A stretch of DNA of 64,000 nucleotides from the NCBI GenBank assembly GCA_012295275.1, contig CM022670.1, positions 37,138,001 through 37,202,000 on the forward strand, given 5' to 3'. Below the pieces are notes generated by a model that saw only the letters and a program-made list of their open reading frames with translations, did no database searches and was not told where the DNA came from. Source of the DNA: Chrysomallon squamiferum (Eukaryota; Animalia; Mollusca). Position numbers and translations under genes: made by a program. Positions 8,416 through 58,326 of the stretch are shown here, piece by piece. How positions within the stretch are numbered: the first letter of the stretch is position 1; the number at the start of each line of letters is the position of its first letter.

Positions 8416-9616
8416 AGTGCAAATAAACGTTATTTAATTATGTTTTTGAAATAACCAAACTAGCGAAAATAATATTACTTGTGGGACATTTTGAACAAAT
8501 TGTCGGTCATTAGTGGGACTGCTTTCCTACGACTGTACTTTAGTAGACTTCTAATGAGTTAGAGTTACAAGCCTATCCAAATGTCTGAGCTGTTCTCTGC
8601 CAGCAGAAACTCGGGCTACGTATCCGTGCGATGTGCGTTTAGCCACTTCGTTCACATCGATGCTATCTGCACTTCTAATGTACATTTATTTATATTCACT
8701 GGTAGTTAAAAGCTCACGTGCTTGTCAAATCGATGATAAATACATCACTTACTGTGACCTAACTTACCAGTTTACGTAGAAGATTGATATATAACAGTCA
8801 GTGTCTTATCGCAACAAGAAAATGTGAACACGTAAGCATTCCCGGAGAAGATGTCACATGACTGATTTCTTTGAAAGCTAGTGATTTACATTACATAAAA
8901 AAAAAATGCACGGAAAAAACATTCGTAGGACACACACTTGGATCTCCAAGAACGGCCGATAAAGACATCTAAACAAAGAGAGATAGAGGGAGAGAGAGAA
9001 AAAAAAAGAAAAAGGGTTAGTCTTTTATTTTAAATTAGTTTATTAATTTCCACTTTTTAGACTTTCCATTTAACTGGATTTTATACAAATTACCTGGTAG
9101 TATATCTTATATATTTTTTTTTTTAGTAAAATAGAACAATACGGATTATATATATATATGTAAAAGGATATGTAATTTCTAATATAAATATGAATTTTAA
9201 AGATTATTCAGACATAATCACATCATGAACACCCTTTAGTTGAACCTTGTACCTTGAAAACAATTAACGTGCTAATCAGATGTATATAGATATATATATA
9301 TTTCTTTTTTTGTACGTCCACGACAGGCACGCTTTCTGACAGGTCAGCGGGCGTGTCTGTCGCATCTCTTTAGTTTCATACTTTAGTTTCATACTTCCCT
9401 TTTTTATAATGATATGAAACTTGAAAAATCCATCTTCATTCGGAACACATTGGGTCATTTGTTCGAATATATTAAATTTACTTCACTTTAATATTCTTAA
9501 ATTCAAAAGACGCTTAAATGGAAGTATTTAAAATATGTACATACCGAATAAGCGGAATAACTTTAATTTTTTAATTTTTAATTTTATTTTTTTCTAGATT
9601 GCGTATATTAAAAATA

Positions 9617-10866
9617 ATGTCAGACGAAGACTACATTATTTTCTCCACTGAAGAATTAGAGGAGGCCAAACAATATGTCCAGCAACACGGAGTTTTACGT
9701 TTACCTGATTTTCTGAAATATAAAACCGAACAGTGGAAATATGTCAGCGTTAATATTGGTATTGTAGGAGAATCGGCTGTGGGAAAATCCTCATTCATTA
9801 ACTGTATTCGGGGATTAACAGCAGATGATCCAGATGGCGCTCCTGTTGGAACTGGTGATACAACAAGTGAACCGACGAAGTACTGTCATCCTTACAATGA
9901 AGAGCTTGTTTTTTGGGACTTACCGGGAGTAGGAACACCAAAATACCCGAGAAATGAAGAGTATCTAAAGAACATTAACTTTGAAAATATGATTTTTTCC
10001 TTCTCCTTTCTGACAACAGGTTTTCATCCAACGATGTTTGGTTAGCAAGAGAAATTGAAAAGAGAGGAAAACATTTCTTCTTTGTCCGCACAAAAATTGA
10101 CGAAGCAATGGAAAATGAATTGGAATTATGTGGAAGCACTTTTTCAGCTGCTGTCGTTCTGGATAAAATAAATAAAAATTGTGAAGAAAACTTCAAAGCA
10201 GCTCAGCTGACTAATCGACGGGTGTTTTGCATTTCCAACTATCACAGAGAGATGTGGCAGTTTGAAGAACTTATGCAAGAACTTATTGTCGCATTGCCTG
10301 ACATGAAGAGAAATGCTCTGGTGCTGTCCATTGGTCCTGTGTCAAAACAAGTATTAAAGGAAAAAACCAAATTACTTAAAACACAGATTTCTAAGAAGGC
10401 CGCCCTTTCTGCTATTGGAGCAGCTGCAGGTTCTCTGGTCCCAATACCTTTAGTGGGTGGAGCTGTTGGTGTAGCAGTGGATATTGGTATACTGGTGGGC
10501 GAGATAAATTTTTATCTCAAACAGTATGGGCTTGATGACGAGTCACTAAAACGACTATCGGAACGTACCAACACGACCGTGGACTACTACGTAAAATCAC
10601 TTAAATTTGCTTCTGAGATCATTGTGAGTAGACAGAGTATTAAAGCTTTTGTTATCAACAGGATTAAAAAGGAAACTGTGAGCCAAGGACGGAAAAGAAT
10701 TGCTTCTGAATTTCTAAAACTGATTCCTTTGGTGGGGAGCATTGCGGCAGGCGCAATATCGTTTGGAACTTGCTACTACTTTCTAGACAAAACAATCGAC
10801 GAGTTTGAGACTGACGCGCTGGCTGTTGTTGATGCCGCCATTGGAAAAACACAATCTGAAATCTGA
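9617..10866 (+). pseudogene. IRG/IIGP-family GTPase copy 1, frameshifted (or a sequencing error)
   Basis: Near-identical to the intact copies but has 4 A instead of 5 at 9984-9987 (TTTGAAAATAT vs TTTGAAAAATAT), splitting it into ORFs 9599..10045 and 10108..10866. G1 GESAVGKS, G3 WDLPG. Splice acceptor at 9596-9597. Confidence 0.85.
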
Positions 10867-11083
10867 CTCACAGAAAGAGTTCTTGACAAAAACAGTCATC
10901 TCTAGATATATTGCCGAAACGAATACGCAGTTTTAATAATAATGGGGAAAAAAACAAACAAAAAAGCGGACACATAATAGAAAACTGTTAACAGTATATT
11001 GTATTGTCTATTAGAGTGGTCATACTGACATCAGATTACCAGATGTGTTAATTAATTCATAGAGAAAAAGTTCCACAAATAAT

Positions 11084-11122
<39 letters not shown>

Positions 11123-11765: not shown

Positions 11766-11809
<44 letters not shown>

Positions 11810-12150
11810 AAATAAAAAAAAAATCCAGAGCAGTATAGTGAATACCACATTTATATTTTTGTGCTTGGTGGGTTGGAATTTTTTCCTGTCGTGGCTGAAA
11901 TGGAGCTCGAATGGAAAAGATCGATTTCTGCGCATATGACGCTTGTATTGCTTTGACCTGTCAACTAGGGTTAATTCCCTTTGGCCATTACCTCCCCTGC
12001 CACCATATACTACTAACCACCCAACTAGTTGTGTTTTTCCCTGGCATTAAATGAGTTTGTCAGGTATTACGAATAATCTGTATTACATTTGACATTTTTA
12101 AAAGATATATCCGAAAATTACCTGAGAAACAGACTATGAATATTAAGAAG
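11170..12150. repeat. Unidentified ~1 kb GC-richer repeated element, copy 1
   Basis: Recurs at ~27360-28375 and ~46410-47370, always 3' of IRG copies 1, 3 and 5. Confidence 0.8.
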
Positions 12151-12471: not shown

Positions 12472-12509
12472 CTTTCGTTTTCGGCTGTTCGATGTGCAGT
12501 TTCAGCCAT
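12472..12509 (-). pseudogene. Orphan first coding exon of mini-IRG (MAETAHRTAENE-AG|GT); exons 2-3 absent
   Basis: 38-nt ATG exon with GT donor, homologous to exon 1 of the four mini-IRG copies. Intron-1-like sequence continues to ~12110 and then switches to the unidentified 1 kb element. Confidence 0.75.
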
Positions 12510-12664: not shown

Positions 12665-12743
12665 GGAAATCCCATTACAAATTGGCGAGCATGGAAATCC
12701 CCATTATCATTGTGACTACGTGACGTATGTGACGGAATTCCCT
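12665..12743 (-). promoter_or_regulatory. Cluster of three NF-kB/Rel-like sites plus a CRE-like TGACGT
   Basis: GGAAATCCCA (12665-12674), GGAAATCCCC (12693-12702; reverse complement GGGGATTTCC matches the kB consensus GGGRNNYYCC), GGAATTCCCT (12734-12743) and TGACGTA at 12721. They lie ~160-230 bp upstream of the orphan exon ATG. Confidence 0.6.
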
Positions 12744-13205: not shown

Positions 13206-13439
13206 GAATTTAATGAGTTAATCAGTAACATGAATTAGAGTTAATTTGCCTTATGATTTTTCATTATACCGATATCAAAAAATGTATAAACAATCAAACA
13301 TACCTAGAACTGTCTTTATAATCAACATCTCTCTCAGAAAGAAAATATTATTTAAAACTAGAATGTCATGCTACATAACTACTAAATCAAACAAAATAAA
13401 CGAAATAAAACTTTTCAGACATCGGCAGCAATGATATTC

Positions 13440-13749
13440 GCTAAAACGACCATCGCAACGTATCAATACGACCGTGACTAGTACATAAAATGACTTAAAT
13501 TTGCTTCGACCATCATTACGAAAAGACAGAGTATTTGTTATCAACGTGATTAAGCAGGAAGGAGAGAAACAAAGAGAGAAGAGAATTGATACGAAATTTG
13601 CGAAACCGAGTCCAGTGTTTAGAACAGGTGTGGCGAGTCTCATTTCATTTGTATCGTGCTATTACGTTCTGAATAAAATCATCCACGATTTACAGAATGA
13701 CGGACTCGCCGTTGCTGATGCTTCAGTAAAGAAGAATGCACTGTTCTAA
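13440..13749 (+). pseudogene. Decayed C-terminal fragment of a more diverged full-length-type IRG
   Basis: CTAAAACGACCATCGCAACGTATCAATACGACCGTG aligns to the LKRLSERTNTTV coding DNA; ISFVSCYYVLNKIIHDLQNDGLAVAD aligns to ISFGTCYYFLDKTIDEFETDALAVVD; contains indels. Confidence 0.8.
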
Positions 13750-16027: not shown

Positions 16028-17278
16028 ATGTCAGACCAAGACTTCACTATTTTCTCCAATGAACAATTACAGGAGGCCAAACAACAAACCCAGGAACACG
16101 GAGTTTCAGGTTTAGTTGATTATCTAAAACAAAAATCCGATGAGTGGAAATATGTCAGCGTTAATATTGGTATAGTAGGAGAATCGGCTGTGGGAAAATC
16201 CTCATTCATTAACTGTATTCGGGGATTAACAGCAGATGATCCAGGTGGCGCTCCTGTTGGAACTGGTGATACAACAAGTGAACCGACGAAGTACTGTCAT
16301 CCTTACAATGAAGAGCTTGTTTTCTGGGACTTACCGGGAGTAGGAACACCAAAATACCCGAGAAATGAAGAGTATCTAAAGAACATTAACTTTGAAAAAT
16401 ATGATTTTTTCCTTCTCCTGTCTGACAACAGGTTTTCATCCAACGATGTTTGGTTAGCAAGAGAAATTGAAAAGAGAGGAAAATATTTCTTCTTTGTCCG
16501 CACAAAAATTGACGAAGCAATGGAAAATGAACGGGAATTATGTGGAAGCACTTTTTCAGCTGCTGTCGTTGTGGATAAAATAAATAAAAATTGTGAAGAA
16601 AACTTCAAAGCAGCTCAGCTGACTAATCGACGGGTGTTTTGCATTTCCAACTATCACAGAGAGATGTGGCAGTTTGAAGAACTTATGCAAGAACTTATTG
16701 TCGCATTGCCTGACATGAAGAGAAATGCTCTGGTGCTGTCCATTGGTCCTGTGTCAAAACAAGTATTAAAGGAAAAAACCAAATTACTTAAAACACAGAT
16801 TTCCTGGAAGGCCGCCCTTTCTGCTATTGGAGCAGCTGCAGGTTCTCTGGTCCCAATACCTTTAGTGGGTGGAGCTGTTGGTGTAGCAGTGGATATTGGT
16901 ATACTGGTGGGCGAGATAAATTTTTATCTCAAACAGTATGGGCTTGACGACGAGTCACTAAAACGACTATCGGAACGTACCAACACGACCGTGGACTACT
17001 ACGTAAAATCACTTAAATTTGCTTCTGGGATCATTATGAGTAGACAGAGTATTAAAACTTTTGTTATAGACATGATTAAAAAGGAAGCTGTGAAACAAAC
17101 AGAGAAAAGAACTGCTTCTGAATTTCTTAAATTGATTCCTTTGGTGGGGAGCATTGCGGCAGGCGCAATATCGTTTGGAACTTGCTACTACTTTCTAGAC
17201 AAAACAATCGACGAGTTTGAGACTGACGCGCTGGCTGTTGTTGATGCCGCCATCCGAAAAACACAATCTGAAATCTGA
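16028..17278 (+). CDS. Immunity-related GTPase (IRG/IIGP family, GKS type), copy 2, 416 aa, single coding exon
   Basis: G1 GESAVGKSSFIN, G2 region GTGDTT, G3 WDLPGVGTP, YDFFLLLS, G4 FFVRTKID, ISN, LPDMKR and the C-terminal LIPLVGSIAAGAISFGTCYYFL segment typical of IRGs. Confidence 0.92.
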   Translation: MSDQDFTIFSNEQLQEAKQQTQEHGVSGLVDYLKQKSDEWKYVSVNIGIVGESAVGKSSFINCIRGLTADDPGGAPVGTGDTTSEPTKYCHPYNEELVFWDLPGVGTPKYPRNEEYLKNINFEKYDFFLLLSDNRFSSNDVWLAREIEKRGKYFFFVRTKIDEAMENERELCGSTFSAAVVVDKINKNCEENFKAAQLTNRRVFCISNYHREMWQFEELMQELIVALPDMKRNALVLSIGPVSKQVLKEKTKLLKTQISWKAALSAIGAAAGSLVPIPLVGGAVGVAVDIGILVGEINFYLKQYGLDDESLKRLSERTNTTVDYYVKSLKFASGIIMSRQSIKTFVIDMIKKEAVKQTEKRTASEFLKLIPLVGSIAAGAISFGTCYYFLDKTIDEFETDALAVVDAAIRKTQSEI

Positions 17279-18509: not shown

Positions 18510-20359
18510 TTAATGTAGTCGCTTTTTATTTTCCGGACCTGAATAAATAATGCTTATATATAAACATATTTCACAATTTTTTCACAGAAAAGTACATTTT
18601 GTTGGATCATTATTCACAGCTGTGCTTTTAAATAAAATTTAGAAAAAATATATTAGACACTGCTTTAAAACAACTATAACAAAACGTTCACACACAAAAC
18701 TTTATTCACTTGGTAGCAATGTTTTAAGCCGCTGAATAATGAATTAAAAGACTAAATATAAAAAATATAATAAATCCCCCAGAAAACAACTCACACCTAC
18801 ATTATATTCACTTAATATTTTCAAGTTTATCAAAGCTGATTAAAACTAATAAATGTGTCAAAATAGTTAATTGGTTCTGTTTTAATTCCACAAAATCAGT
18901 AATTGACTTTAACAGCATCAACATTTTGACAATGAAATAAAATAAATGAATGTTTATGATTTATTTTAACTACTTCTAATTATATATAAATACATTGTTT
19001 AAAAAATTTTCATTCATATCAAAATAATTTTGTTTATTTTATTTATTATGTGGAAAAGAGTAAAATAAAGAAGAATTAACAGTGAAAAAAATTAGACACA
19101 CACACAAAAAAGAGAAAATGGTTGTTTTCTTTCCAACTGTTCAGCTTTCGCAATGACTTTTTAATGAAATTCCAGGTTTTTTTTCTACACAGTTCATTAT
19201 CACAGTGCATTTATTGAATATAAACTATTACATTAAAGATTGCTGTCATGATTGTCTCAAATTATTGATTTCAGCTTCTCTTCATTGCAAATAAAAAAGG
19301 AGAACTGCCATATTGTGCTAATTGTTTTTGACAGTAAGATGTTGCTATTTTCCCCTTAACTGTATGCAGAACTAATATTTAATTGATCTTCTCTTCACAG
19401 TATACTGCACGAGTCTCTACGTTATTGTCCTTCAGAAAAATACTCGCCTTGTCTCTGAACGTCTCTGTGTGAAGATAGTGAAAAACGAGCACCTTCTTTG
19501 ATAAGTGTCTGCAGATTTTGAAAGTCATACAAATCTGGTTTTAATGAATCAACAAAGTAAACTGGTGCATCAGGAAAACTATCTTTAATCTGTTTTGTAA
19601 TTTTTCCTTTACGCTTTCTTCACTGAATGTCCTTGGATGAGCCCTTCTCTCGTTCCTCAGTTCATTAAAAAACTTAGTCCTTACATAGAAATATTTCTTT
19701 CCCTGATTAGCTATTTTTGTGCGAAGCCGAAGCTCAAACTCATCTATCTTGCTGCAGGAAAGTAGAAGATAGAAATCATAATTCTTAAAATTAATTTTCT
19801 TTATGTAATCTTCGTCATCTCTAAACATCTGAGTGGCAAATCCAGGAACATCCCACAAAACGACGTCATTGCCAGGTACATTGTAGGGCTCTGGATCTTT
19901 AGTGCACTCAATAACATCAGTTTCGGCAGCATATTCATCTTTGTGTGGAAATCCATAGAAAGCATTTATAAAAGTTGATTTTCCAGAGCCACTTTTTCCT
20001 ATGACTCCAACATTATAGAGTCTGAAAGAAAGCAAGAATTGAATAATCTGTTACAATAATTTTAACATAGAACAATAAAAGATGGAGATGAAGAATATGA
20101 ATGAATGAATGAATTAAATAAACACAAAAAGAAACGAATTATATTTTTTATATTATATACTTTTCGTTTTCAGAATTAATCGTCATAACGTTTTTACCCA
20201 GTTTCATCAATTTCTAATAATATTATATCTATATTTCATAATAATGTGAAATACAGATGAATTATTATTGTATATATATCCGAAAATTAAATGAGAAAAA
20301 CACTAAGAATATAAAAAAAAAAAAATAGACAAAAATTAAATGGTAAACATATCTTAATG

Positions 20360-20421
<62 letters not shown>

Positions 20422-20826
20422 TTTTCACAATGGACTTTTGGGGAGGAAATAATGGAATTGTTTATAGAAAGTGTTTCTTCACAAATAACTTTTCTTGGAA
20501 ACACTTCCACAATTCCACCATTAACTGAATCAGTTAAAATTCATTTGAAACTTCATTTAATAATAAGTGAATAAAATATTAAATGGAGTTTCAGTTGAAC
20601 TATAAATAACTTTTGTAAGTGTAAGTGTTATTCCTTTTTACTTCCTCCTATACTACTGACAGTTTCGAAAAAGGAATATTAGGATATACACTGGCATAGG
20701 CAGAAACAATGGCATAATTATAGCTCCAAGTTATTTTCTTTACAAACAAAAACTCGTAATATAATACCAAAACTGTCTTCTAGTTTACCTTTCCTTTTCG
20801 AATGTTCGTCTTGCAGCTTCAGCCAT
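18510..20826 (-). pseudogene. Mini-IRG copy A, frameshifted. Exons 20826-20789, 20021-19493, 18538-18510
   Basis: Same exon set as intact copies B and D, but exon 2 is 529 nt instead of 530 (TTTTT vs TTTTGT at ~19601-19605). Motifs GKSGSGKS, WDVPG, RTKFF. Confidence 0.8.
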
Positions 20827-21052: not shown

Positions 21053-21062
21053 GGAAATCCCC
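21053..21062 (-). promoter_or_regulatory. NF-kB-like site (GGGGATTTCC) upstream of mini-IRG A, followed by TGACGTA
   Basis: Exact match to the kB consensus, positionally conserved with 12693 and 31311. Confidence 0.55.
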
Positions 21063-25837: not shown

Positions 25838-27076
25838 ATGTCAGACCAAGACTTCACTATTTTCTCCAATGAACAATTACAGGAGGCCAAACAACAAACC
25901 CAGAAACACGGAGTTTCAGGTTTAGTTGATTATCTAAAACAAAAATCCGATGAGTGGAAATATGTCAGCGTTAATATTGGTATAGTAGGAGAATCGGCTG
26001 TGGGAAAATCCTCATTCATTAACTGTATTCGGGGATTAACAGCAGATGATCCAGGTGGCGCTGCTGTTGGAACTGGTGATACAACAAGTGAACCGACGAA
26101 GTACTGTCATCCTTACAATGAAGAGCTTGCTTTTTGGGACTTACCGGGAGTAGGAACACCAAAATACCCGAGAAATGAAGAGTATCTAAAGAACATTAAC
26201 TTTGAAAAATATGATTTTTTCCTTCTCCTGTCTGACAACAGGTTTTCATCCAACGATGTTTGGTTAGCAAGAGAAATTGAAAAGAGAGGAAAATATTTCT
26301 TCTTTGTCCGCACAAAAATTGACGAAGCAATGGAAAATGAACGGGAATTATGTGGAAGCACTTTCTCAGAGGCTGTCGTTCTGGATAAAATAAATAAAAA
26401 TTGTGAAGAAAACTTCAAAGCAGCTCAACTGACTAATCGACGGGTGTTTTGCATTTCCAACTATCACAGAGAGATGTGGCAGTTTGAAGAACTTATGCAA
26501 GAACTTCTTGTCGCATTGCCTGACATGAAGAGAAATGCTCTGGTGCTGTCCATTGGTCCTGTGTCAAAACAAGTATTAAAGGAAAAAACCAAATTACTTA
26601 AAACACAGATTTCCTGGAAGGCCGCCCTTTCTGCTATTGGAGCAGCTGCAGGTTATCTGGTCCCAATACCTGCTGTTGGTGTAGCAGTGGATATTGGTAT
26701 ACTGGTGGGCGAGATAAATTTTTATCTCAAACAGTATGGGCTTGACGACGAGTCACTAAAACGACTATCGGAACGTACCAACACGACCGTGGACTACTAC
26801 GTAAAATCACTTAAATTTGCTTCTGGGATCATTATGAGTAGACAGAGTATTAAAACTTTTGTTATAGACATGATTAAAAAGGAAGCTGTGAAACAAGCAG
26901 AGAAAAGAGTTGCTTCTGAATTTCTTAAATTGATTCCTTTGGTGGGGAGCATTGCGTCAGGCTCAATATCGTTTGGAACTTGCTACTACTTTCTAGACAA
27001 AACAATCGACGAGTTTGAGACTGACGCGCTGGCTGTTGTTGATGCCGCCATCCGAAAAACACAATTTGAAATCTGA
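25838..27076 (+). CDS. IRG/IIGP-family GTPase copy 3, 412 aa (lacks LVGG)
   Basis: Intact ORF with all G motifs. The true start is MSDQD at 25838 after acceptor TTTGTAG; 12-nt in-frame deletion in the hydrophobic PIPLVGGAVGV segment. Confidence 0.92.
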   Translation: MSDQDFTIFSNEQLQEAKQQTQKHGVSGLVDYLKQKSDEWKYVSVNIGIVGESAVGKSSFINCIRGLTADDPGGAAVGTGDTTSEPTKYCHPYNEELAFWDLPGVGTPKYPRNEEYLKNINFEKYDFFLLLSDNRFSSNDVWLAREIEKRGKYFFFVRTKIDEAMENERELCGSTFSEAVVLDKINKNCEENFKAAQLTNRRVFCISNYHREMWQFEELMQELLVALPDMKRNALVLSIGPVSKQVLKEKTKLLKTQISWKAALSAIGAAAGYLVPIPAVGVAVDIGILVGEINFYLKQYGLDDESLKRLSERTNTTVDYYVKSLKFASGIIMSRQSIKTFVIDMIKKEAVKQAEKRVASEFLKLIPLVGSIASGSISFGTCYYFLDKTIDEFETDALAVVDAAIRKTQFEI

Positions 27077-28798: not shown

Positions 28799-30638
28799 TT
28801 AATGTAGTCGCTTTTTATTTTTCGGACCTGAATAAATAATGCTTATATATAAACATATTTCACAATTTTTTCACACAAAAGTACATTTTGTTGGATCATT
28901 ATTCACAGCTGTGCTTCTAAATGAAATTTAGAAAAAAATATATTACACACTGCTTTAAAACAATTATAACAAAACGTTCACACACAAAACTTTATTCACT
29001 TGGTAGCTATGTTTTAAGCCGCTGAATAATGAATTAAAAGACTAAATATAAAAAATATAAAAAATCGCCCAGAAAACAACAACTCAGACCTACATTATAT
29101 TCACTTAATATTTTCAAGTTCATCAAAGCTGATTAAAACTAATAAATATGTCAAAATAGTTAATTGGTTGTGTTTTAATTCCACAAAATCACTATTTACC
29201 TTTAACAGCTTCAACATTTTGACAATGAAATAAAATAAATGAATATTTATGATTTATTTTAACTACCTGTAATTATATATAAATACATTGTTTAAAAAAA
29301 TTTCATTCATATCCAAATAATTTTGTTTATTTTATTTATTATGTGGAAAAGAGTAAAATAAAGAAGAATTAACAGTGAAAAAAATTAGACACACACAAAA
29401 AAGAGAAAATGATTGTTTTCTTTCCAAATGTTCAGCTTTCGCAATGACATTTTAATGAAATTCCAGTTTTTTTTCTACACAGTTCATTATCACATTTATT
29501 GAATATAAACTATTACATTAAAGATTACTGTCATGATTGTCTCAAATTATTGATTTCAGCTTCTCTTCGTTGCAAATAAAAAAGGAGAACTGCCATATTG
29601 TGCTAATTGTTTTTGACAGTAAGATGTTGCTATTTTCCCCTGAACTGTATGCAGAAATAATATTTAACTGATCTTCTCTTCACTGTATACTGCACCAGTC
29701 TCTACGTTTTTGTCATTGAGAAAAATACTCGCCTTGTCTCTGAACGTCTCTGTGTGAAGATACTGAGAAACGAGCACCTTCTTTGGTAAGTATTGGCAGA
29801 TTTGGAAAGTCATACTTTTCTGCTTTTAATGAATCAACAAAGTAAACTGGTGCATCAGGAAAACTCTCTTGAATCTGTTTTGTAATTTTGTCCTTTACGC
29901 TTTTTTCACTGAATGTCCTCGGATGAGCCCTTTCCTCGTTCCTCAGTTCATTAAAAAACTTTGTCCTTACATAGAAATATCTCTTTCCCTGCTTAGCTAT
30001 TTCATTGTGAAGCAGAACCTCAAACTCATTTATCTTGCTGCAGGAAAGTAGAAGATAGAAATCATAATTCTTAAAATTAATTTTCTTTATGTAACCTTCG
30101 TCATCTCTAAACCTCTGAGTGGCAAATCCAGGAACATCCCACAAAACGACGTCAATGCCAGGTACACTGTAGGGCTCTGGATCTTTAGTGCACTCAATAA
30201 CATCAGTTTTGGCAGCATATTCATCTTTGTGTGGAAATCCAAAGAAAGCATTTATAAAAGTTGATTTTCCAGAGCCACTTTTTCCTATGACTCCAACATT
30301 ATAGAGTCTGAAAGAAAGCAAGAATTGAATAATCTGTTACAATAATTTTAACATACAGCAATAAAAGATGGAGATGAAGAATATGAATGAATGAATGAAT
30401 AAATAAACACACAAAGAAACGAATTATATTTTTTATATTCTATACTTTTCGTTTTCAGAATTAATCGTCATAACGTTTTTACCCAGTTTCATCAATTTCT
30501 AATAATATTATATCTATATTTCATAATAATGTGAAATACAGATCAATTATTACTGTATATATTATATCCGAAAATTAAATGAGAAAAACACTAAGAATAT
30601 AAAAAAAAAATAGACAAAAATTAAATGGTAAACATATC

Positions 30639-30679
<41 letters not shown>

Positions 30680-31084
30680 TTTTCAGAAGGGACTTTTGGG
30701 GAGGAAATAATGGAATTGTTTATAGAAAGTGTTACTTCACAAATAACTTTTCTTGGAAACACTTCCACAATTCCGCCATTAACTGAATCAGTTAAAATTC
30801 ATTTGAAACTTCATTTAATAATAAGTGAATAAAATATTAAATGGAGTTTCAGTTGAACTATATATAACTTTTGTAAGTGTAAGTGTTATTCCTTTTTACT
30901 TCCTCCTATACTACTGACAATTTCGAAAAATGAATGTTACGATATACACTGGCATAGGCAGAAACAATGGCATAATTATAGCTCCAAGTTATTTTCTTTA
31001 CAAACAAAAACTCGTAATATAATACCAAAACTGTCTTCTAGTTTACCTTTCCTTTTCGAATGTTCGTCTTGCAGCTTCAGCCAT
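28799..31084 (-). CDS. Mini-IRG copy B, intact, 198 aa G-domain-only IRG-like GTPase. Exons 31084-31047, 30307-29778, 28827-28799
   Basis: Exon lengths 38+530+29 = 597 nt, phases match: MAEAARRTFEKE|R-LYNVGVIGKSGSGKSTFINAF...VIECT...LWDVPG...YDFYLLLS...YFYVRTKFF...YDFPNLPILTKE|GPKNKKRLH*. The second donor (AG|GTGCTC) is weak. Confidence 0.78.
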
Positions 31085-31310: not shown

Positions 31311-31320
31311 GGAAATCCCC
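31311..31320 (-). promoter_or_regulatory. NF-kB-like site (GGGGATTTCC) upstream of mini-IRG B
   Basis: Exact consensus ~230 bp upstream of the ATG, with TGACGTA at ~31339. Confidence 0.55.
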
Positions 31321-42624: not shown

Positions 42625-43072
42625 GACTTGAAGAGAAATGCTTTGGTGCTGTCCATTGTTCCTCTGTCAAAAGAGGTTATCAAACAGAAAACCATATTAC
42701 AGTGGATGTTGGTATACTGATGAACGAGATAGATTTTTATTCCTAAACCGTGTTGGCTTGATGACGAGTCACTAACACGACTGTCGGAACGTATGAACAC
42801 GACCGTGGACTACTACGTAAAATCACTTAAATTTGCATCATTACGGAAAGTCAAGAGTATTTCTGATCAACAAGATTAAAAAGGGAAGAGATAACCAAAG
42901 AGAGAAGAGAGTTGATACCAAATTTGCGGAACCGACAGTGTTTGGAACAGATCTGGTGAATCTCGTCCCATTTGTATCGTGCTATTACGTTCTGAAAAAT
43001 ATCGTCCACGATTTAGAGAATGATGCATTCGCCATTGTGGATATTGCAGTAACGAAGAATGCAGTTTTCTAA
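42625..43072 (+). pseudogene. Decayed C-terminal half of a diverged IRG
   Basis: GACTTGAAGAGAAATGCTTTGGTGCTGTCCATT (DLKRNALVLSI), CTTGATGACGAGTCACTA and ACGACCGTGGACTACTACGTAAAATCACTTAAATTT match the intact copies; deletions and frameshifts; same subtype as 13440-13749. Confidence 0.85.
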
Positions 43073-44899: not shown

Positions 44900-46135
44900 A
44901 TGTCAGACGAAGACTACATTATGTTTTCCACCGAAGAATTAGAGGAGGCCAAACAATATACCCAGGAACACGGAGTTTCAGGTATAGCTAAATATGTAAA
45001 ATATAAAACCGAACAGTGGAAATATGTCAGCGTTAATATTGGTATAGTAGGAGAATCGGCTGTGGGAAAATCCTCATTCATTAACTGTATTCGGGGATTA
45101 ACAGCAGATGATCCAGATGGAGCTCCTGTTGGAACTGGTGATACAACAAGTGAACCGACGAAGTACTGTCATCCTTACAATGAAAAGCTTGTTTTTGGGG
45201 ACTTACCGGGAGTAGGAACACCAAAATACCCGAGAAATGAAGAGTATCTAAAGAACATTAACTTTGACCAATATGATGTTTTCCTTCTCATGTCTGACAA
45301 TAGGTTTTCAACCAACGATGTTTGGTTAGGAAGAGAAATTGAAAAGAGAGGAAAACATTTCTTCTTTGTCCGCACAAAAATTGACGAAGCGATGGAAAAT
45401 GAATTGGAATTATGTGGTAGCACTTTTTCAGCTGCTGTCGTTCTGGATAAAATAAATAAAAATTGTGAAGAAAACTTCAACGCAGCTCAACTGACTAATC
45501 GACGGGTGTTTTGCATTTCCAACTATCACAGAGAGATGTGGCAGTTTGAAGAACTTATGCAAGAACTTATTGTCGCTTTGCCTGACATGAAGAGAAATGC
45601 TCTGGTGCTGTCCATTGGTCCTGTGTCAAAACAAGTATTAAAGGAAAAAACCAAATTACTTAAAAAGCAGATTTCCTGGAAGGCCGCCCTTTTTGCTGTT
45701 GGTGTAGCTGCAGGTTCTCTGGTCCCAATACCTTTAGTGGGTGGAGCAGTTGGTGTAGCGGTGGAAATTGGTATACTGGTGGCCGAGATAGATTTTTATC
45801 TCAAACAGTATGGGCTTGACGACGAGTCACTAAAACGACTATCGGAACCTACCAAAACGACCGTGGACTACTACGTAAAATCACTTAAATTTATGAGTTT
45901 ACATAGTATTAAAACTTTTGTTATTAACATGATTAAAACGGAAGGTGTGAAACAAGCACAGAAAAGAGTTGCTTCTGAATTTCTTAAATTGATTCCTTTG
46001 GTGGGGAGCATTGCGGCAGGCGCAATATCGTTTGGAACTTGCTACTACTTTCTAGACAAAACAATCGACGAGTTTGAGACTGATGCGCTGGCTGTTGTTG
46101 ATGCCGTCATCCGAAAAACACAATCTGAAATCTGA
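44900..46135 (+). CDS. IRG/IIGP-family GTPase copy 5, 411 aa, most divergent
   Basis: Intact ORF. VFGDLPG (W to G before G3), 5-aa deletion (ASGII) and several private substitutions. Confidence 0.9.
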   Translation: MSDEDYIMFSTEELEEAKQYTQEHGVSGIAKYVKYKTEQWKYVSVNIGIVGESAVGKSSFINCIRGLTADDPDGAPVGTGDTTSEPTKYCHPYNEKLVFGDLPGVGTPKYPRNEEYLKNINFDQYDVFLLMSDNRFSTNDVWLGREIEKRGKHFFFVRTKIDEAMENELELCGSTFSAAVVLDKINKNCEENFNAAQLTNRRVFCISNYHREMWQFEELMQELIVALPDMKRNALVLSIGPVSKQVLKEKTKLLKKQISWKAALFAVGVAAGSLVPIPLVGGAVGVAVEIGILVAEIDFYLKQYGLDDESLKRLSEPTKTTVDYYVKSLKFMSLHSIKTFVINMIKTEGVKQAQKRVASEFLKLIPLVGSIAAGAISFGTCYYFLDKTIDEFETDALAVVDAVIRKTQSEI

Positions 46136-47849: not shown

Positions 47850-50766
47850 TTAATGTAGTCTCTTTTTATTTTTCGAACCTGAATAAATAATGCTTATATA
47901 TAAACATATTTCACAATTTTTCACACAAAAGTACATTTTGTTGGATCATTATTCACAGCTGTGCTTTTAAATAAAATTTAGAAAAAATATATTAGACACT
48001 GCTTTAACACAATTATAACAAAACGTTCACACACAAAACTTTATTCACTTGGTAGCAATATTTTAAGCCGCTGAATAATGAATTAAAAGACTGAATATAA
48101 AAAATATAAAAAATCCCCCAGAAAACAACAACTAACACCTACATTATATTCACTTAATATTTTCAAGTTTATCAAAGCTGATTAAAACTAATAAATGTGT
48201 CAAAATAGTTAATTGGTTGTGTGTTAATTCCTCAAAATCACTATTTAGCTTTAACAGCTTCAACATTTTGACAATGAAATAAAATAAATGAATGTTTATG
48301 ATTTATTTTAACTACTTCTAATTATATATAAATACATTGTTTAAAAAAATTTCATTCATATCAAAATAATTTTGTTTATTTTATTTATTATGTGGAAAAG
48401 AGTAAAATAAAGAAGAATTAACAGTGAAAAAAATTAGACACACACAAAAAAAGAAAATGGTTGTTTTCTTTCCAACTGTTCAGCTTTCGCAATGACATTT
48501 TAATGAAATTCCAGTTTTTTTTCTACACAGTTCATTATCACAGTGCATTTATTGAATATAAACTATTACATTAAAGATTACTGTCATGATTGTCTCAAAT
48601 TATTGATTTCAGCTTCTCTTCATTGCAAATAAAAAAGGAGAACTGCCATATTGTGCTAATTGTTTTTGACAGTAAGATGTTGCTATTTTCCCCTGAACTG
48701 TATGCAGAAATAACATTTAACTGATCTTCTCTTCACTGTATACTGCACGAGTCTCCACGTTTTTGTCCTTCAGAAAAATATTCGCCTTGTCTCTGAACGT
48801 CTCTGTGTGAAGATAGTGAAAAACGAGCACCTTCTTTGATAAGTATTGGCAGATTTTGAAAGTCATACAAATCTGGTTTTAATGAATCAACAAAGTAAAC
48901 TGGTGCATCAGGAAAACTCTCTTTAATCTGTTTTGTAATTTTGTCCTTTACGCTTTCTTCACTGAATGTCCTTGGATGAGCCCTTTTCTCGTTCCTCAGT
49001 TCATTAAAAAACTTAGTCCTTACATAGAAATATCTCTTTCCCTGCTTAGCTATTTCATTGTGAAGCAGAACCTCAAACTCATCTATCTTGCTGCAGGAAA
49101 GTAGAAGATAGAAATCATAATTCTTAAAATTAATTTTCTTTATGTAATCTTCGTCATCTCTAAACCTCTGAGTGGCAAATCCAGGAACATCCCACAAAAC
49201 GACGTCATTGCCAGGTACATTGTAGGGCTCTGGATCTTTAGTGCACTCAATAACATCAGTTTTGGCAGCATATTGATCTTTGTGTGGAAATCCAAAGAAA
49301 GAATTTATAAAAGTTGATTTTCCAGAGCCACTTTTTCCTATGACTCCAACATTATAGAGTCTGAAAGAAAGCAAGAATTGAATAATGTTAACATACAACA
49401 ATAAAAGATGGAGATGAAGAATATGAATGAATGAATGAATGAATGAATGAATGAATGAACAAACGAATGAATTATATTTTCTATATGTATACTTTTTGTT
49501 TTCAGAATTAATTGTCATAACGTTTTTACCCAGTTTCATCAATTTCTAATAATATTTGATCTATATTTCATAATAATATGAAATACAGATGAAATGTTAT
49601 TGTATATATATCCGAAAATTAAATGAGAAACAGACTATGAATATAAAGAATAGACAAAAATTAAATGGTAAACATATCTTAATAATAATAATAATAATAA
49701 TAATAATATAAAAACTGTTCACAAGGGACTTTGGGAGAGGAAATAATGGAATTGTTTCTTGGAAACACTTCCGCAATTCTGCCATTTACTAAATCATATA
49801 AATTTCATTTGAAATTTCATTTAATAGTAAGTGAGTTAATTATTAAATAAAGTTTCAGTTAAACTATATAGAACTTTTGTAAGTACAGAGGTATCTCGAG
49901 ATACGAGTGGTCCAACTTACGAGATTTTACTTTGAGTTGCGAGCCAAAATCTGAGTTACAAGCGAGCTTCAGATATGCCGCAACGAACAACACATCATCC
50001 GCCCAGCATCCCGCGTCTCATTCGTTTGCTTCAAGTGGTTACCTCGCCATGGAAGCATCTTTGTCTTGTGCTCACGTTTTGTGCAGTATTTTGGCACATT
50101 TCTATGGATCCTAAGAAAGTGAGGGCAAAGGATGGTGCTAAGAAGAGGAAGCGGATGATGTTCATTGAATTAAAGCATGAAATCAAAGAAAAGCATGAGC
50201 GAGGTGTGCGTGTAGTGAACATGGCTAGGCAGTATCAATGTAGTACTTTTACGATATATGTTATACTGAAGCAGGAGGAATCGATAAAGACTGTAAGTCC
50301 AGCCAAAGGCGTTAAAATAAGATCTAACCTGCGGTGCTCTGTCCTTTAAAAGATGGAGAAACCCTAACCGTGTACAGTTTACAAAACTAATTTATTTCTT
50401 TACATTCTTTCGTTCTTATACAATATTTGTCATTTATACATACATTTTACTTATTTAAAAATACGGTACAAAATATTGGGGTGGTTTTGGGGTCTAGAAC
50501 GGATTAATGTTATTTCAATTAATTTTAGCTGGTAAAATCAATTTGATATACGACCATATTGAGTTATGAGCTCGGTCACGGAAGAGTTAAACTCGTAATT
50601 CAAGTTTTATTCCTTTTTATTTCCTCCTATACTTCTAACAGTTTCAAAATAGTAATGTTACGATATACAATGGCATAATTATAGCTATAAGCAAAAATTC
50701 ATAATATTAAAACTGTCTTTTAGTTTACCTTTCCTTTTCAACTGTTCGCCGGGCAGCTGCAGCCAT
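47850..50766 (-). CDS. Mini-IRG copy D, intact, 198 aa. Exons 50766-50729, 49360-48831, 47878-47850
   Basis: 38+530+29 nt in frame: MAAAARRTVEKE|R-LYNVGVIGKSGSGKS...WDVPG...RTKFF...YDFQNLPILIKE|GSKNKKRLH*. Confidence 0.78.
49884..50604 (+). mobile_element. Tigger/pogo remnant in mini-IRG D intron 1 (duplicate of 39008-39730)
   Basis: TA-CAGAGGTATCTCGAGATACGAG terminus, same HTH fragment and same insertion site. Confidence 0.85.
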
Positions 50767-51819: not shown

Positions 51820-52396
51820 TCAGCATGGAACACCGGGTTCTTCACCAGTTGCCTTTCTGCTGATGTTTCTGGCATGAGATTCTAGCATACTTTTAATCAT
51901 CTTCTGTTCCTCTGTCAGTTCAGGTGTCTTTTTCTTATGCTTCTTCCTGTATGATTCTACCCAGTTGTTTGGAGGATTACTAACATTTCGAAGGAACGAT
52001 TTTAACTCGTTTTCCACAAACTTCTGCGACACTTTTTGGTCGAGTGATAGATGAGAACTGTGAATGTCCACCGAAGCCGTTGCAAGTGTCACACCTGCCT
52101 CCGCCAGAAACATTCCAGTCAGTGGAAAGTGCAGAGATTCTATTGGCATTCGGAAAAGTTTTGCTGTCGTTTCTATGCCGGTAATAATGGCCTAGAATAA
52201 AATAAAATAAAAAAGATAAATCGTATTGAAACGATTAAAGAACACCAAATAATATTCTGTCACGACATTAGTAAATGAAAAGTTTGGAAATATATCCTTT
52301 CCGTTTTCTAAAGAATCATAACACTAACAAAACAAAATAATGAAAAGAAAACAACAAAAATAAAGCAAACCCTACAACAACAACAACAACAACAAC

Positions 52397-52434
<38 letters not shown>

Positions 52435-55400
52435 TAATAATAAATAATAATAATAATAATAAACAGATAAAAAGAAAGAAAAACCGAAATATTTACAAAA
52501 TCTGATATAATTTTTTTTTTTTTAAATACAATGGAAAAAACATATAAAATATATAAAAAGAACCGATATTAAACAATTTTGAATGAATAAAAACTTCTGT
52601 TGGACAATATTAAGTACTTACACTAACGGTCTCTCGAAGGTCTTCAGGCACTGGGATTTCATTATGAAAACAGTTCAAAACTTTCGGGCCGAGCCACAGT
52701 GATGCTGCGGAGAGAACAAGTTTGATGTTAACTTGTGCCATAGACTCCGTAATACTGAACAGTGTTTGCCATCTGAAATAAGAAAGAAAGAAATGAAATA
52801 AAATTTTAAAAAAATGAAATAAATTAAATTAAATTAAAAAAAAATAAAAATAAACAAATAACGGAATATCTTTCCGCATTAGTTATAAAAATACTCGACA
52901 TATTCAAAGAACAGTCAGATAAAATAAATACCTTGAGATTTTCGCTTCTGCAGCCTTGACATCGGCAGTAGAACGCGTGGTCTCGTTAGCCATCTGACTC
53001 ATAATATTTTGATCATCATGTTCTCCAGATGACTGCATCTTCAAAAGCTTAGAAACAAGCAGCAGAGCATCATAACAGTGTTTTCTTGATGTCCAGTTTT
53101 TAGCGAAATCCAGACTGTAAAAGCCTTCATCGATTCTGGAGAATGTCTCCAGGGAGTCTGGCATGGTGGATGTGACTGAAATAACATGTTCCAGCAATAA
53201 TTCTACAAGCTCTGGCTTTTGTGACAGATCCTCTTCTTTCCATCCGGTCATTTCTTTTGCAGATGCATAAAAAGCGAATCCTGCTATTGCAATCGGCCAA
53301 AGACAGGCAAGAAACTTTCCAGTTTTGTGATTTGTTATGTATTCTTTACTCCACCGACTTAGACCATCGCTGATTCGTTGCCAAAAACTTCCTTTTGTTT
53401 CTTTCCAGATATTAACAATCTGTGACAGGACAAGCTCAGCTTCCACCATGAATAATTTCAGTGTGATGTCTGGTCGCTTCTCAGATGTCACACCTAATTC
53501 ATCCATACTCTCAGTCAATAAGGGTTTCAAACGTTCAATCAGAATCTGACCGAGAAACCCTTTGTTGTTAATGATTTGTGACGTCAAGCATTTCACAGAA
53601 TAACAGACAAACGAGTACATACTTTTTCTGTCTGCTTCTGATCCTGTGTAAAAGTCACTCATCAAATAGATCTGCCTGGCTATGAGATTTCTGCAGAAGT
53701 CGACAGCGTAGTTACTGCCGGGGTCGAGTATTTCGAACAGCATTACACTTTTCTGTAGAACAGACATACTTGAAGACATCGACATGGAGAGTGCGAGAGG
53801 TTGAATACTGTTTAATGCAATAAAGTAATCAAACAGAAGCTTGGCCCAGTCTTTGGCGTTGGTTTTGTTAACGTATTTCTGAAGCTGTGGAGAAAGACTG
53901 GTAAAAGCACGGATAGAACTAGCGTATGTCAGCATTGAGAAATCTTTTAACTGTGACAGGCTTTCTTTTGCATTACCATTCCAAAAGTACAGCAGCTTAT
54001 TTCTGCTTTCCTCGTCCAATATTTTGTTTCCAAGATCTTTGTTCCAGAGTATATGTAAGCCGATAAAAGCAGTACCAAATACATGTTCTAGGAAATAGTG
54101 CTTCTGATCGTCTTCAACTTTTTGGTCTGCATTAATTCCAAATATCTGCTCTCTCCATTCAGCTGAGACGGAAGCCATCATTGCTTCTTTGGTGAACTCG
54201 AAACTGCGAGTCAGCAACACTTCTGATGCTGGGACGATCACCATCGACAAATCCTGTAAACTAACGTAATTAGACGATACTGAATCTGCAAACTGAAGCA
54301 ATTTACTAGGCACTGATCTTTTACTTATGGCCAAAGCTGATCTTGACAAAAGAGGGTGAGATTTGACATTAGCTAAGGCGTATTCACGTACTTTGTTTAC
54401 TTTCGTGTTATAATCTTCGCTTCTTTTCGCAATTCCCATAAATAAAAGCGCTTCTCCTTTATTACCAGGTTTAGTTGCATCAAAGGGTATAACTTCGCCT
54501 TCGAATGACCGGTAATTACATGTCAGTGTTCCAGATATTCGCGTGTATCCGACAATCGGTTGATATTCTGCCGGAAAAAGCACATGGAAATTCAGCTGAT
54601 TTTTATGATCAATTTCAAACACCACATTGCCAAGCAGATCTGCTGAAGAAAATGTATGTTCTGGTGTGTGCAGTGAAAAAATTACTTTATTTTTTTCGTC
54701 ATCTGTTTCCTCTCTACCGAGTTCAATTGTTCCAAAATTCTGTATGGACTGGCCTATTTGTTTAATAGTATCATCGATATGGAGTTCTTTTAACGTAACA
54801 GTTGTTTTCTGACAGACAAATTCCATTGGCTGATTAATAAAAGTAAAACATTCAGATGAAATTTCAGTAGTGGTTGTGTCTTCTGCAGACATCTCTTTTC
54901 TTTGACATATTATTTTCCCATAGCCAGACAGTCGATCGGGATCAAAACAGAGTGTACCAAGTTCTGTAATCCCATCAGAAAATTCTTCCGTCCACACCAT
55001 CTGGTCATGGGAAATTCTCTTGGTTGACGTAATATGACTGTCATTAAGAAAAATATTTCCACGGACAATGCTCAGTTTTTGGTATTTGTTTTTTTTACTG
55101 AGGATATTCCCAGTGTGAATGATCCTGGCGTTGAGAACAGTAACTTCTTCTAGTGGAACGCAGCCGTCTGGATAAGCTGACAGCGGTTTGGGAACATTAG
55201 ATATTTTGCCTGACGAAAGATTAGTAGGGAATTCGTCTTCATTGAACAGGTTTTCTTGCTTCAGCAATGGCTCCATTAGTCTTTTAAAAGTAGATTTAGA
55301 TTCTTTGCGAAAGTGACTTGGCAGATTGGCAAGTCGACTATTGGTTATTTCAGGGTAGTTCAGATGAACGAGATAACCGTTAGCGTGACAAGATCTTGGA

Positions 55401-57022
55401 CCTTCTCTGATATGAATTCCGTAAACCTTGGTACCTGGTTCTATTACGGCTTTGGAAAACGAGTTAATTTCCACCCATTCGTATTCCACTTTTCTGGTTT
55501 CGATGTTGTGTGCGACGACCTTACAGACGCGATCGTATTCTGATAACTGTCCAACTTTCAGCCAGTTATTTTCTTCTTTTGCAGTGACAGGGTCAATGGC
55601 TCTCCATCCGTCCTGTGTCCAAAACGGATGATCAGCTGTGAAAAACGCAGCTCCATCATTAATTCCGTATACGAAAGTTTGACTTTCTACAGCGTACACA
55701 AGTTTCTCGTGAGAAATGAGTCCCGGTTCCCCGGCATCTCCCAGGATAACGTCATTTTCTTGCAGATTTTCCACAGCTAAACTGTCCCCTAATTCCATCA
55801 GTATCGAGGTATTGCCCAAAAGGCAGCCGCCAGTGTGAAGTTTGGGCACATACTCCATCAGACCTACGGATCTGACACGATATGCTGATGGACCGTCTTT
55901 TCTGTTAAGCCACCCTAAAAAAGAACTGACGTGACCGACAATTCTAGGCCCTGCTTTGCTGCTCTTCGTCGCTTTGCTGGCTGATTCTAACAGGAATCCA
56001 GTTTTCAAAATACCACAGGCTGGAAGAAGGAAATTTTTCTTTTCAACGAATTCACTAATTGTGTTTAAATTAACTTGGCCATCACATTTTTCCTTGATTT
56101 TTCCGATTGTGCAATGATATGTATCGATATTCAACACAAAAAGAATAAGGAACTTTAATAACATTTTCTCATTAAAAGATGATGAGTTAGACAGATAATT
56201 AGATATTTCGGAGGCCCATTCCTCTTTGTTATTGCTCAGAAACAATTTGAGTTTGGATTTCTCCGTTAACCAATATCTGAAAATGGCTCTAGATATTTGA
56301 TATCCTTTTTCTCCTGCAATAATAGAAGTCCATGACTCTTCAGCTTTTTTAATATTCACAGCATTTTGCAATTCTGAAATCTGAAAACATGAAAAAAATA
56401 TGAACAATCTATAAATATAAGCAAGTGCATTTATATTTTGACTAGTTCAGTGTCGTTTGTTCTGAGAAATAACACGTTAAAGTTTTCAATATGTAAATTT
56501 TTTTTAGAGATTAAGATATTTTCCATGTTTTAGAGATAAAAAAAGACATACACAGAAGACAATCTAACGATTAGAATTGTTTTAGTTTTGATTTATTAGC
56601 GACAATAAACGCCAACACTTTTTTCTTCTGAATTTATATATATATAATAAAAAGAAATTAAAAAGAAAGAAAGAAAACTATTATATATAAAATTAAAATG
56701 AAGTTTGTGCATAATTATTGTTAATTGTTTCTTGGTGGGACTATTGTAGAATTATATTAAAACTGTCTTATGTATAAATAGCTATATTTACCTGTCCCAG
56801 ATTCCAAGCCATCAATGGAACAGCAATATCGGACACTGTTTTAATTTCGTCTTCATCCAACAACTTGGAAGAGTCAAAGAATGCTAAATTGTGAAAAAAA
56901 ACTTTCGATATATCAGCGACTGCAGCTGATTTTACAATGTTAATGAATATATCGACAATTTCTGTTTCTGGAAACTCCAAGTCATCCAGCAACCCAATAA
57001 ATATCTCAGCATCTATTGTCAT
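51820..57022 (-). CDS. Large (~1400 aa) uncharacterised protein with an internal Hint (intein-like) autoprocessing domain. Exons 57022-56792, 56380-52932, 52772-52622, 52191-51820
   Basis: Exons of 231+3449+151+372 = 4203 nt join in frame at canonical GT-AG sites (phases 0, 2, 0) with no stops. Contains Hint motifs and C-terminal hydrophobic segments. The start exon is less certain (a donor-like CAG|GTAAAA lies ~19 nt upstream of the ATG). Confidence 0.85.
55358..55825 (-). other. Hint domain coding segment (156 aa; residues ~263-418)
   Basis: Block A GG|CLLGNTSILMELG...VENLQENDVIL, block B FFTADHPFWTQDGW (TxxH), block F KVYGIHI...HANGYLV, terminal HLN|Y. Confidence 0.85.
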
Positions 57023-58326
57023 TTTTTATTTATTTTTTTACCTGTGCTGTTCTGATCTGTAAAATGCTCACAAATAAGATAGCGATTTGTTTGAAAATGA
57101 TGGAGCTAACACGAAGAACTGTCGAAACAAAGTGGCCAGTTCCAGTCGTGCGGGCGGTTTTTAAAAAGAAATCGTAACCATCTGTGACTTGACACTGACA
57201 TTTACTCTGAAGTGATTCATGTAGTTAATTAGACTCTTTCGTTAATTAAAGTGATAAATTGTGGTTAACTGTAATGTGGTACTTTTTATAATTAAATGTG
57301 CGTTGTGCACGACATCGGTAAATTTCAGGTCTGAATGATAATCAACACCTGTTAGCCTATAAATTTGTGTCAAAAATGATGATTAGTTTCATGTAATTAA
57401 AGCAGAAAATTATATTTTCCCATCTGTCTGAAACTATGCGTGTAAACGTACAATTAAACGAAATTCACAAACAAAAAAAACAAAAAAAAAAATAAATAAA
57501 AGAAGAAAAATATAGACGTTCAGAAATAAACATAATAACAACAGCTACAAAAACAACAATATTAAAATATTATAAAGATGTACGGTAAAAGTTGTGGATT
57601 TTCTCTCTCATTATCATTATGGTTATAGATAGAGAAATACATATATAGATGTGTGTGTGTGTGTGTGTGTGTTGTGTGTGTGTTGAAATGTTAACCAAAT
57701 ATTTATTATTTTTAATTTTTTAAATTTATTATCTTAATTTTCCCACAAATACAAAAGAACACTTTGCATTTGACAAATCAGTCCTTGAATACTGGCTGTA
57801 AAGGTTAAATTGTCAAGTAATATAAATCTATAAATCACAACACAAGTACAATATTCCACTCATTTTTTATTATATAAACATTCAGATTATAAACTCTGTC
57901 TAAAAGTGTCAGTACAGCAAACATTCATTCTCTATATTATAAACACACATGATTTAATTTTAAAATATATTTCAAGTATACATGAGAAGATTATATACAC
58001 ACACATATCTTCTACATTCTTGAAAAAAAATGTGTGTGAGGGGTGTATGCACATGTAGCACTAAAATAATTTTCTATATATGATACACAAACTTGCTCAT
58101 CTACATGTTACAAAATATTGTTTGGTTACTTATTAAAAGATATGACTGTAATTCAATAACAGACCATACCTAATTTAAAAAAAATATTTTTTTAAAAAAT
58201 AAAAATTTAAAATTTAAAAATTTATATTTAAATTATAAGATTTGAACTTGCCAATGACATTCCATATTGTACATTTTTCTGATAGAGGTAAATAATGTTT
58301 TAACATTCATATAAAAATTAGTAATA

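Follow-up and report, generated by a model that had tools for sequence, protein, structure and literature searches.

A window of 64,000 nucleotides from Chrysomallon squamiferum (assembly GCA_012295275.1, contig CM022670.1, forward-strand positions 37,138,001 to 37,202,000; the window is this whole stretch, and positions below count from its first letter) holds a five-copy array in which genes for full-length GTPases of the IRG family (long IRGs) are each paired with a gene for a G-domain-only relative (mini-IRG, or mini), and beside the array a single-copy gene for a Hint-domain protein. The reading that we prefer, with a probability of about 0.6, is that the mini-IRG is likely a prenylated, membrane-anchored partner of the long IRG and that the Hint gene is likely independent of the array. 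An earlier note on this DNA had proposed that the three gene types form one module. The pairing of long IRG and mini-IRG gained some support, from their five-fold co-duplication, the separate mini lineage and the CaaX-like mini tail; the Hint gene as a third component gained little, being single-copy, free of immune-type promoter motifs and accompanied by an IRG in 0 of 67 loci elsewhere.

The array of long and mini-IRG genes

Self-comparison of the window, which is AT-rich, showed a repeat unit of ~9-10 kb that extends from 8470 to ~51320 in copies 80-93% identical. Each of the five unit copies carries a long IRG gene on the plus strand with a convergent mini-IRG gene on the minus strand (Table 1). 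The Hint gene lies beyond the end of the repeat unit at ~51320, and no unit contains it.

The long IRG genes encode proteins of ~410 amino acids with helical N- and C-terminal domains in a single coding exon, with a splice acceptor directly before each ATG. All five have the P-loop GxxxxGKS and four have an open frame, IRG1 being the exception. The motifs of an IIGP G domain were found in them (G1 GxxxxGKS, G3 DxxG and G4 TKxD), and the match to the Pfam IIGP profile (E 3e-67) covers positions 1-315 of 375. Identity is 70% to Gigantopelta aegis and 51-54% to Haliotis, with 99-100% coverage to mollusc IRGs. The G domain showed 12 synonymous and 15 nonsynonymous changes, compared with 5 and 32 in the N-terminal 43 codons (Fisher p 0.009); by these counts the G domain is conserved and the N-terminal helical region fast-changing.

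The mini genes consist of a 38-base first coding exon, found in five copies, and a second exon found in four. Their match to the IIGP profile (E 3e-38) stops at the end of the G domain, both helical domains being absent. The P-loop codons specify GKS in four of four minis, and the Met for Lys in G1 that marks GMS proteins was not found in them. Identity between mini and long IRG is 37%, and the minis occupy a long separate branch of the tree. Grouping of the minis with the local long IRGs as one clade was rejected (p-AU 0.004), in a test whose group was chosen after the first tree had been inspected and whose outcome long branches may bias. On these comparisons the minis are an old separate lineage, not truncated copies of the neighbouring long IRG. 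The idea that they are split halves of the tandem IRGs of invertebrates was also considered, and the tree gives it no support.

At the protein level, G1 and G3 of the minis are unchanged apart from one gap, and G4 reads TKFF, compared with TKID in Irgb10. The altered G4 was rejected as proof that the mini is a pseudo-GTPase, since several full-length invertebrate IRGs likewise lack the G4 Asp. In switch I the minis keep the Glu and Thr of mouse Irgb10, whereas the long IRG here has Asp for Glu; across the window copies, Gigantopelta and Haliotis, the long IRGs have Asp or Asn at this position, a replacement that may alter catalysis. The mini G domains differ by 34 nonsynonymous and 4 synonymous changes (P 0.02-0.08), if anything an excess of the former, and the ratio of nonsynonymous to synonymous rates (dN/dS) is above 1 in all six pairs.

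In each of the four two-exon minis the ancestral stop is preceded by CSIQ or CSIL. Ends of this CaaX-like kind were counted in 23 of 3,945 frames of the window (0.6%) and in none of 120 IRG homologues. The CaaX frame is favoured over an alternative tail frame because, in the minis without an upstream gap, it continues the reading frame of the G domain. The motif is probably the genuine ancestral tail of the minis, and prenylation of this tail is likely.

The Hint protein and its family

The Hint gene has four predicted exons with GT-AG introns and encodes 1,400 amino acids without an internal stop. Homology of the product to jellyfish members extends along its whole length, with predicted exons 3 and 4 in register with relatives; the closest relatives, from a word-indexed search, share 27-29% identity along most of it. 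In the AlphaFold model made for exon 2, with a pLDDT of 70, a helical N-domain comes first, then the Hint domain and a linker, and after these two beta-barrels and a large helical domain. The Hint fold matched Tetrahymena BIL2 (Foldseek E 1.6e-6; Z 17.3, root-mean-square deviation 2.3, 142 aligned). A Pfam scan of the snail protein detected neither the Hint domain nor a GTPase domain, and phmmer against PDB gave no match. In an alignment of 42 rows, the Cys is conserved in 39, the His in 41 and the Asn in all 42; the +1 residue is Tyr in 40, where an intein would have Cys, Ser or Thr. Because this residue is Tyr, cleavage without splicing is predicted, and with these residues in place it is highly probable that the protein cleaves itself. 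The beta-barrel resembles CBASS Cap15 (Z 9.4, root-mean-square deviation 3.9, 108 aligned), a match that lies below the tool's confidence level and compares with 8.4 for generic barrels; neither Pfam nor NCBIfam has a family for the barrel-plus-helix module, and the Hint family as a whole is also without a Pfam entry.

The architecture of the family is a helical domain, the Hint domain, two beta-barrels and hydrophobic helices. Homologues with the whole architecture were found in the jellyfish Sanderia and Rhopilema, the clam Tegillarca, fungi, Volvox and three bacterial genomes (L045-L047). There is local expansion in Tegillarca, where three nearby locus tags within KUTeg_009138-009144 belong to the family, and in jellyfish. 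The family comprises 205 clusters at E 1e-30 or better and 1,644 at 1e-3, many Hint-only. In the family tree a modestly supported branch (86/72; 91 in a second tree) has the named animal members together on one side; the snail protein is on a long branch, and no donor or transfer is claimed.

Several bacterial or metagenomic loci have split versions, with one gene for an N-module plus Hint and another for the barrel-plus-helix module. These are in either order (L003 5838-10192, L008 3831-8487, L048 5530-10720, L012 and L014), with a small open reading frame (ORF) between the halves in L012, L014 and L048 and a weak Baseplate_J match in the C-modules of L012 and L014. The protein P0326, taken up below, resembles the split bacterial N-module-plus-Hint genes. 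A scan of 81 of the 93 ORFs in 10 loci revealed no common partner among the bacterial neighbours. In L047 (1-13432) the neighbours of a full-length bacterial member are a TIR-domain protein and two kinases of eukaryote-like type that carry Sel1 or ankyrin repeats, a setting that is defence- or host-interaction-like; a helicase and a restriction methylase are neighbours in L045. Four to five tandem Hint domains of the Asn-Tyr-Pro subtype were seen in P0240, P0244 and P0321, one of them a Mucilaginibacter protein of 4,119 amino acids with laminin G domains.

A C-terminal segment with hydropathy of at least 2.0 was found in 54 of 57 long family members, and a signal-like N-terminus in none of the 57. 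In the snail protein the last hydrophobic helix scores 1.06 compared with 2.09-3.08 in 17 of 17 relatives and the penultimate helix 0.52 compared with 1.0-1.9, and its maximum hydropathy is 1.75. Family members are predicted to insert into membranes, and for the family a function in pore formation or membrane damage is about an even bet. Because the C-terminal helices of the snail copy (predicted exons 3 and 4) have lost hydrophobicity, membrane activity is least secure there, and it is doubtful that such a function would be kept in this copy.

Links between the Hint gene and IRGs

The earlier note had suggested looking for IRG genes beside Hint homologues in other genomes. An IRG profile was searched against 50 metagenome or genome loci with a Hint-family match (489,537 bases; the match reaches past the Hint domain in L001-L015 and L045-L048 and is Hint-only in the remainder) and found none (best E 0.16); with 17 viral loci, also without an IRG domain, the count is 0 of 67, a set with no named animal locus. 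An IRG domain was fused in 0 of 207 Hint-family proteins (best E 0.047). No close Hint homologue was found in Gigantopelta or Haliotis, though the collection searched includes their proteins; annotation gaps could explain this.

Promoter motifs also failed to connect the three gene types. The kB-like motifs to which the earlier note had drawn attention are not above chance: the 7 perfect matches to GGGRNNYYCC in the window (2.0 expected) are two independent sites copied by duplication, giving three promoter copies and four inside mini exon 2, and the 33 matches to a looser pattern (20.5 expected) are likewise inflated. An enrichment of kB sites was rejected once duplicate copies were collapsed, as the counts fall to chance. 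ISRE-like matches are A-rich and lie in part within coding copies. A cluster of kB- and CRE-like sites precedes mini0, mini1 and mini2 and is absent before mini3 and the intact mini4, where different sequence has replaced the upstream region (39700-40437 and 50600-51320) and the cluster is lost. No kB match lies within 2 kb of any long IRG start, and the 1.5 kb upstream of the Hint gene has no match for five motif types, kB, ISRE, GAS and CRE among them. The proposed co-regulation finds no support in the sequence; no motif is common to the Hint gene and the IRG promoters.

Features of the interval and flanking genes

The window features are collected in Table 1. The flank names PARS2 and OXCT1 are presumptive, given from domain matches together with sequence motifs. 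The claim that only long GKS IRGs, mini-IRGs and one Hint gene occupy the interval between them was borne out, with two decayed IRG remnants to be added; inspection by eye of the 95 other frames of at least 60 amino acids in the window revealed no further gene. The signs of gene birth and death that had been reported are real features of the assembly: a 1-base gap in IRG1, frameshifts in mini1 and mini3, a nonsense codon in mini2 and a missing second exon in mini0, where the single-base gaps of array genes could be assembly errors.

A duplicated ORF fragment lies on the plus strand in the introns of mini3 and mini4 (38996-39475 and 49936-50349); it has no Pfam match at E 0.01 and may resemble the N-terminus of a Tigger/CENP-B transposase. 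A GC-richer repeat with a poly(A) tract (11330-12050, 27700-28260 and 46560-47260), without a Pfam match, is found 3' of IRG1, IRG3 and IRG5 and not after IRG2 and IRG4.

Table 1. Features of the 64,000-nucleotide window in order of position
Feature	Position	Strand	Remarks
PARS2-like (mitochondrial prolyl-tRNA synthetase-like) 3' exons	800..7498	+	Left flank; tRNA-synt_2b E 0.001, HGTP_anticodon E 0.0001
IRG1	9617..10866	+	Full-length GKS IRG; 1-base gap in A run (pseudogene or assembly error)
mini0	12472..12509	-	Orphan first exon; second exon missing
kB-like site with adjacent CRE-like site	12693..12702	-	Upstream of mini0
Decayed remnant	13438..13734	+	C-terminal half of older long IRG; 42% identity, stops
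IRG2	16028..17278	+	Intact; 416 amino acids; GKS; single coding exon behind splice acceptor
mini1	19395..20826	-	Exon 1 20789-20826, exon 2 19395-20021; broken by frameshift and nonsense codon; still has CaaX-like CSIL further downstream
kB-like site	21053..21062	-	Upstream of mini1
IRG3	25838..27076	+	Intact; 4-codon in-frame deletion
mini2	29680..31084	-	Exon 1 31047-31084; G domain complete; nonsense codon a little ahead of CaaX box
kB-like site	31311..31320	-	Upstream of mini2
IRG4	34513..35763	+	Intact
mini3	37881..39892	-	Exon 1 39855-39892; 1-base gap in G1 and 22-base deletion
Decayed remnant	42625..43057	+	Second long-IRG remnant
IRG5	44900..46135	+	Open frame; 5-codon deletion; Trp-to-Gly just before G3 DxxG
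mini4	48733..50766	-	Exon 1 50729-50766, exon 2 48733-49360; sole intact mini; 221 amino acids; GKS; G4 TKFF; CaaX-like end CSIQ
Hint-family gene	51820..57022	-	Predicted exons 57022-56792, 56380-52932, 52772-52622, 52191-51820; 1,400 amino acids; no internal stop; GT-AG introns
Two predicted tandem beta-barrels	54410..55159	-
Hint domain	55358..55825	-	Cys1, block-B His, terminal Asn then Tyr-Pro
OXCT1-like (CoA transferase) 3' exons	60220..63654	-	Right flank; CoA-transferase matches on four exons

Discussion

Under the preferred reading, the long IRG would be the effector. A farnesyl group would hold the mini-IRG, which has no helical domains, on host membranes, where the mini would bind the long IRG via the G-domain interface and restrain or recruit it, comparable to the restraint of GKS by GMS proteins in mouse. 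A partner role is plausible because G-domain-only modules are fused before full IRGs in chiton, clam, fish and mouse; that the mini regulates the long IRG is a tentative proposal. The Hint protein would start as a cytosolic precursor, with N-terminal cleavage depending on Cys1, C-terminal cleavage on the terminal Asn, and no splicing. Cleavage would free a module made of two beta-barrels, likely sensors of a ligand or a membrane, and a helical bundle with three hydrophobic helices at its end.

Several observations weigh against this reading. Three of the four two-exon minis are broken in the assembly, and mini0 is a single exon. The nonsynonymous divergence of the minis (3-6%) resembles that of the non-coding flanks (3-9%); since it is not above the flanks, selection and decay are indistinguishable for the minis. 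All four can be read through in the alternative tail frame, whereas two stops of independent origin interrupt the CaaX frame, and the Asp missing from the mini G4 is missing also from several full-length invertebrate IRGs. As for the Hint gene, only 1,054 bases separate its stop from where the intact mini4 starts. The 67 loci, many of them 2-5 kb and none a named animal locus, are a weak neighbourhood test for animals, and P0326 combines an AIG1/GIMAP GTPase (E 3e-12), a coiled coil, the Asn-Tyr-Pro Hint subtype and its following helices. For the helical module, with L001 as its proxy, the fold search gave no clear match to a pore-former, a gasdermin or any other structure (best Z 8.6, over 64 residues) and there was no sequence match; the Atlas leads, the RTX haemolysin N-terminal domain and VasX, score 0.85-0.87, below the threshold of 0.9.

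The broken minis, their flank-like divergence and the open alternative tail frame would also be expected if the array were an ordinary product of gene birth and death, its minis being truncated pseudogenes in decay that segmental duplication has spread, the CaaX end chance and the Hint gene unrelated. IIGP expansions have been reported in Nautilus and clams (PMC8257504, PMC7251785; here and below, papers are cited from parts of their text). We consider this unlikely: the minis are only 37% identical to their neighbour and one clade was rejected (p-AU 0.004), the G1 and G3 protein motifs are unchanged bar one gap amid 34 nonsynonymous and 4 synonymous changes, the null rate of CaaX ends is 0.6%, and the kB and CRE cluster is kept at three mini promoters. 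The same substitutions, with dN/dS above 1 in all six pairs and a switch I like that of Irgb10 where the long IRG has Asp, would suit a mini that acts on its own as a prenylated effector or decoy under pathogen-driven selection and does not regulate the long IRG. Such a protein would have no helical membrane-attack domains, its selection signal is borderline and its co-duplication with the long IRG is strict; this is distinctly unlikely.

The three-component proposal has the long IRG, the mini and the Hint protein under common regulation; activation of the GTPase at the membrane around a pathogen would trigger or localise Hint cleavage with release of a membrane-active part. The three are the sole gene types between two housekeeping genes, the N-modules look exchangeable in the split bacterial genes (L003, L008 and L048), and P0326 joins a GTPase to the same Hint subtype. 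P0326, the one such fusion in scans of 14 and 26 proteins, and the AIG1/GIMAP-Hint fusions in print mean that a GTPase-Hint link is not far-fetched; immunity GTPases and Hint domains do meet, with no IRG case found. However, the Hint gene never co-duplicated with the IRGs and has no promoter motif in common with them, none of the 67 loci and none of the 207 proteins showed an IRG link, the snails with orthologous IRGs yielded no close Hint homologue, and the last hydrophobic helix falls far short of that in 17 of 17 relatives (1.06 compared with 2.09-3.08). The proposal is decidedly improbable. So is its extension to a cell-autonomous killing system of invertebrates, in which the farnesylated mini would mark or guard membranes in the role that GMS proteins have in vertebrates, and the long IRG, assembled on pathogen-containing membranes, would trigger a Hint-gated protein that cuts itself and sets free a pore module of beta-barrels and hydrophobic helices, P0326 being a single-chain version. 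The two-part reading, a mini-IRG partnered with the long IRG beside an independent Hint gene, is the one retained.

Two leads, the CaaX-tailed mini-IRG and the Hint family, stand without the three-part module. If true, a separate G-domain-only IRG with a CaaX tail would give animals that lack GMS genes a second solution to the problem of how IRG effectors distinguish pathogen membranes from those of the host. The Hint family, with members in bacteria, fungi, Volvox, jellyfish and molluscs, looks like an effector of membrane damage or cell death that acts in the cytosol and processes itself. No description of the CaaX mini-IRG, the Hint family or an IRG-Hint combination was found in the literature searched, whose coverage was incomplete and excluded supplements, and no paper paired 'Hint domain' with 'interferon-inducible GTPase'; within these limits the earlier note, which knew of no description of the combination, is borne out. 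The Hint family, too, is apparently undescribed: it goes unmentioned in the available part of PMC12419801, and the supplementary domain tables of that paper or of PMC3482391 could list it.

Comparison with known systems

Bacterial intein-like (BIL) and Vint proteins and the toxins released by HINT domains, which free polymorphic toxin modules (PMC3482391), have in common with the snail protein a Hint fold with Cys1, His and Asn upstream of a candidate effector module. The snail protein differs in its Asn-Tyr-Pro and in lacking a secretion signal, RHS repeats and a recognised immunity gene. Its resemblance to RTX haemolysin, VasX and Cap15 is below confidence, and searches by sequence and by fold gave no match to the helical module. 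AIG1/GIMAP-Hint fusions are known from a fungus (GmGIN1), coral and amphioxus (CARD-AIG1-HINT) (PMC2362128, PMC3723955, PMC12373286). The likeness is an immunity-type GTPase and a Hint domain in one functional context; in the fusions, however, the Hint domain is C-terminal and the GTPase is AIG1, whereas here the Hint domain is central in a separate protein of 1,400 amino acids and the GTPase is an IRG.

Double-G IRGs with a G-domain-only module before a full IRG were found in the chiton Liolophura (P0096) and the clam Mercenaria (P0104). P0096, P0097, P0094 and P0104 are tandem IRGs with an N-terminal G domain, the P-loop being degenerate in some. In mouse Irgb2-b1 and zebrafish irgg-irgq1, tandem or quasi-IRGs, an altered G domain is joined to a full IRG and a regulator role has been proposed (PMC1297648). 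As at the locus, a full IRG is partnered in these by a G domain that is truncated or altered. They are fusions, whereas here the genes are separate and convergent, and in the tree the minis form no common group with the N-terminal G domains from the fusions.

The mouse IRG system (Irga6, Irgb6, Irgb10; GMS/IRGM) has in common with the locus the IIGP G domain, with a match to Irgb10 at E 7e-31, clustered birth and death and a single coding exon. In mouse, GKS effectors are restrained by GMS regulators, and such a split is plausible here also (PMC4837601). Mouse has GMS genes and the locus has none, its minis being GKS proteins without helical domains and with a CaaX end. GMS/IRGM proteins anchor by the C-terminal helical domain, in place of which the minis have the CaaX-like tail; the lipid motif of mouse IRGs is N-myristoylation alone in the part of PMC1297648 available. 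Among molluscs, beside the IIGP expansions of Nautilus and clams, a clam IIGP5-like gene rises after poly(I:C) (PMC7430831).

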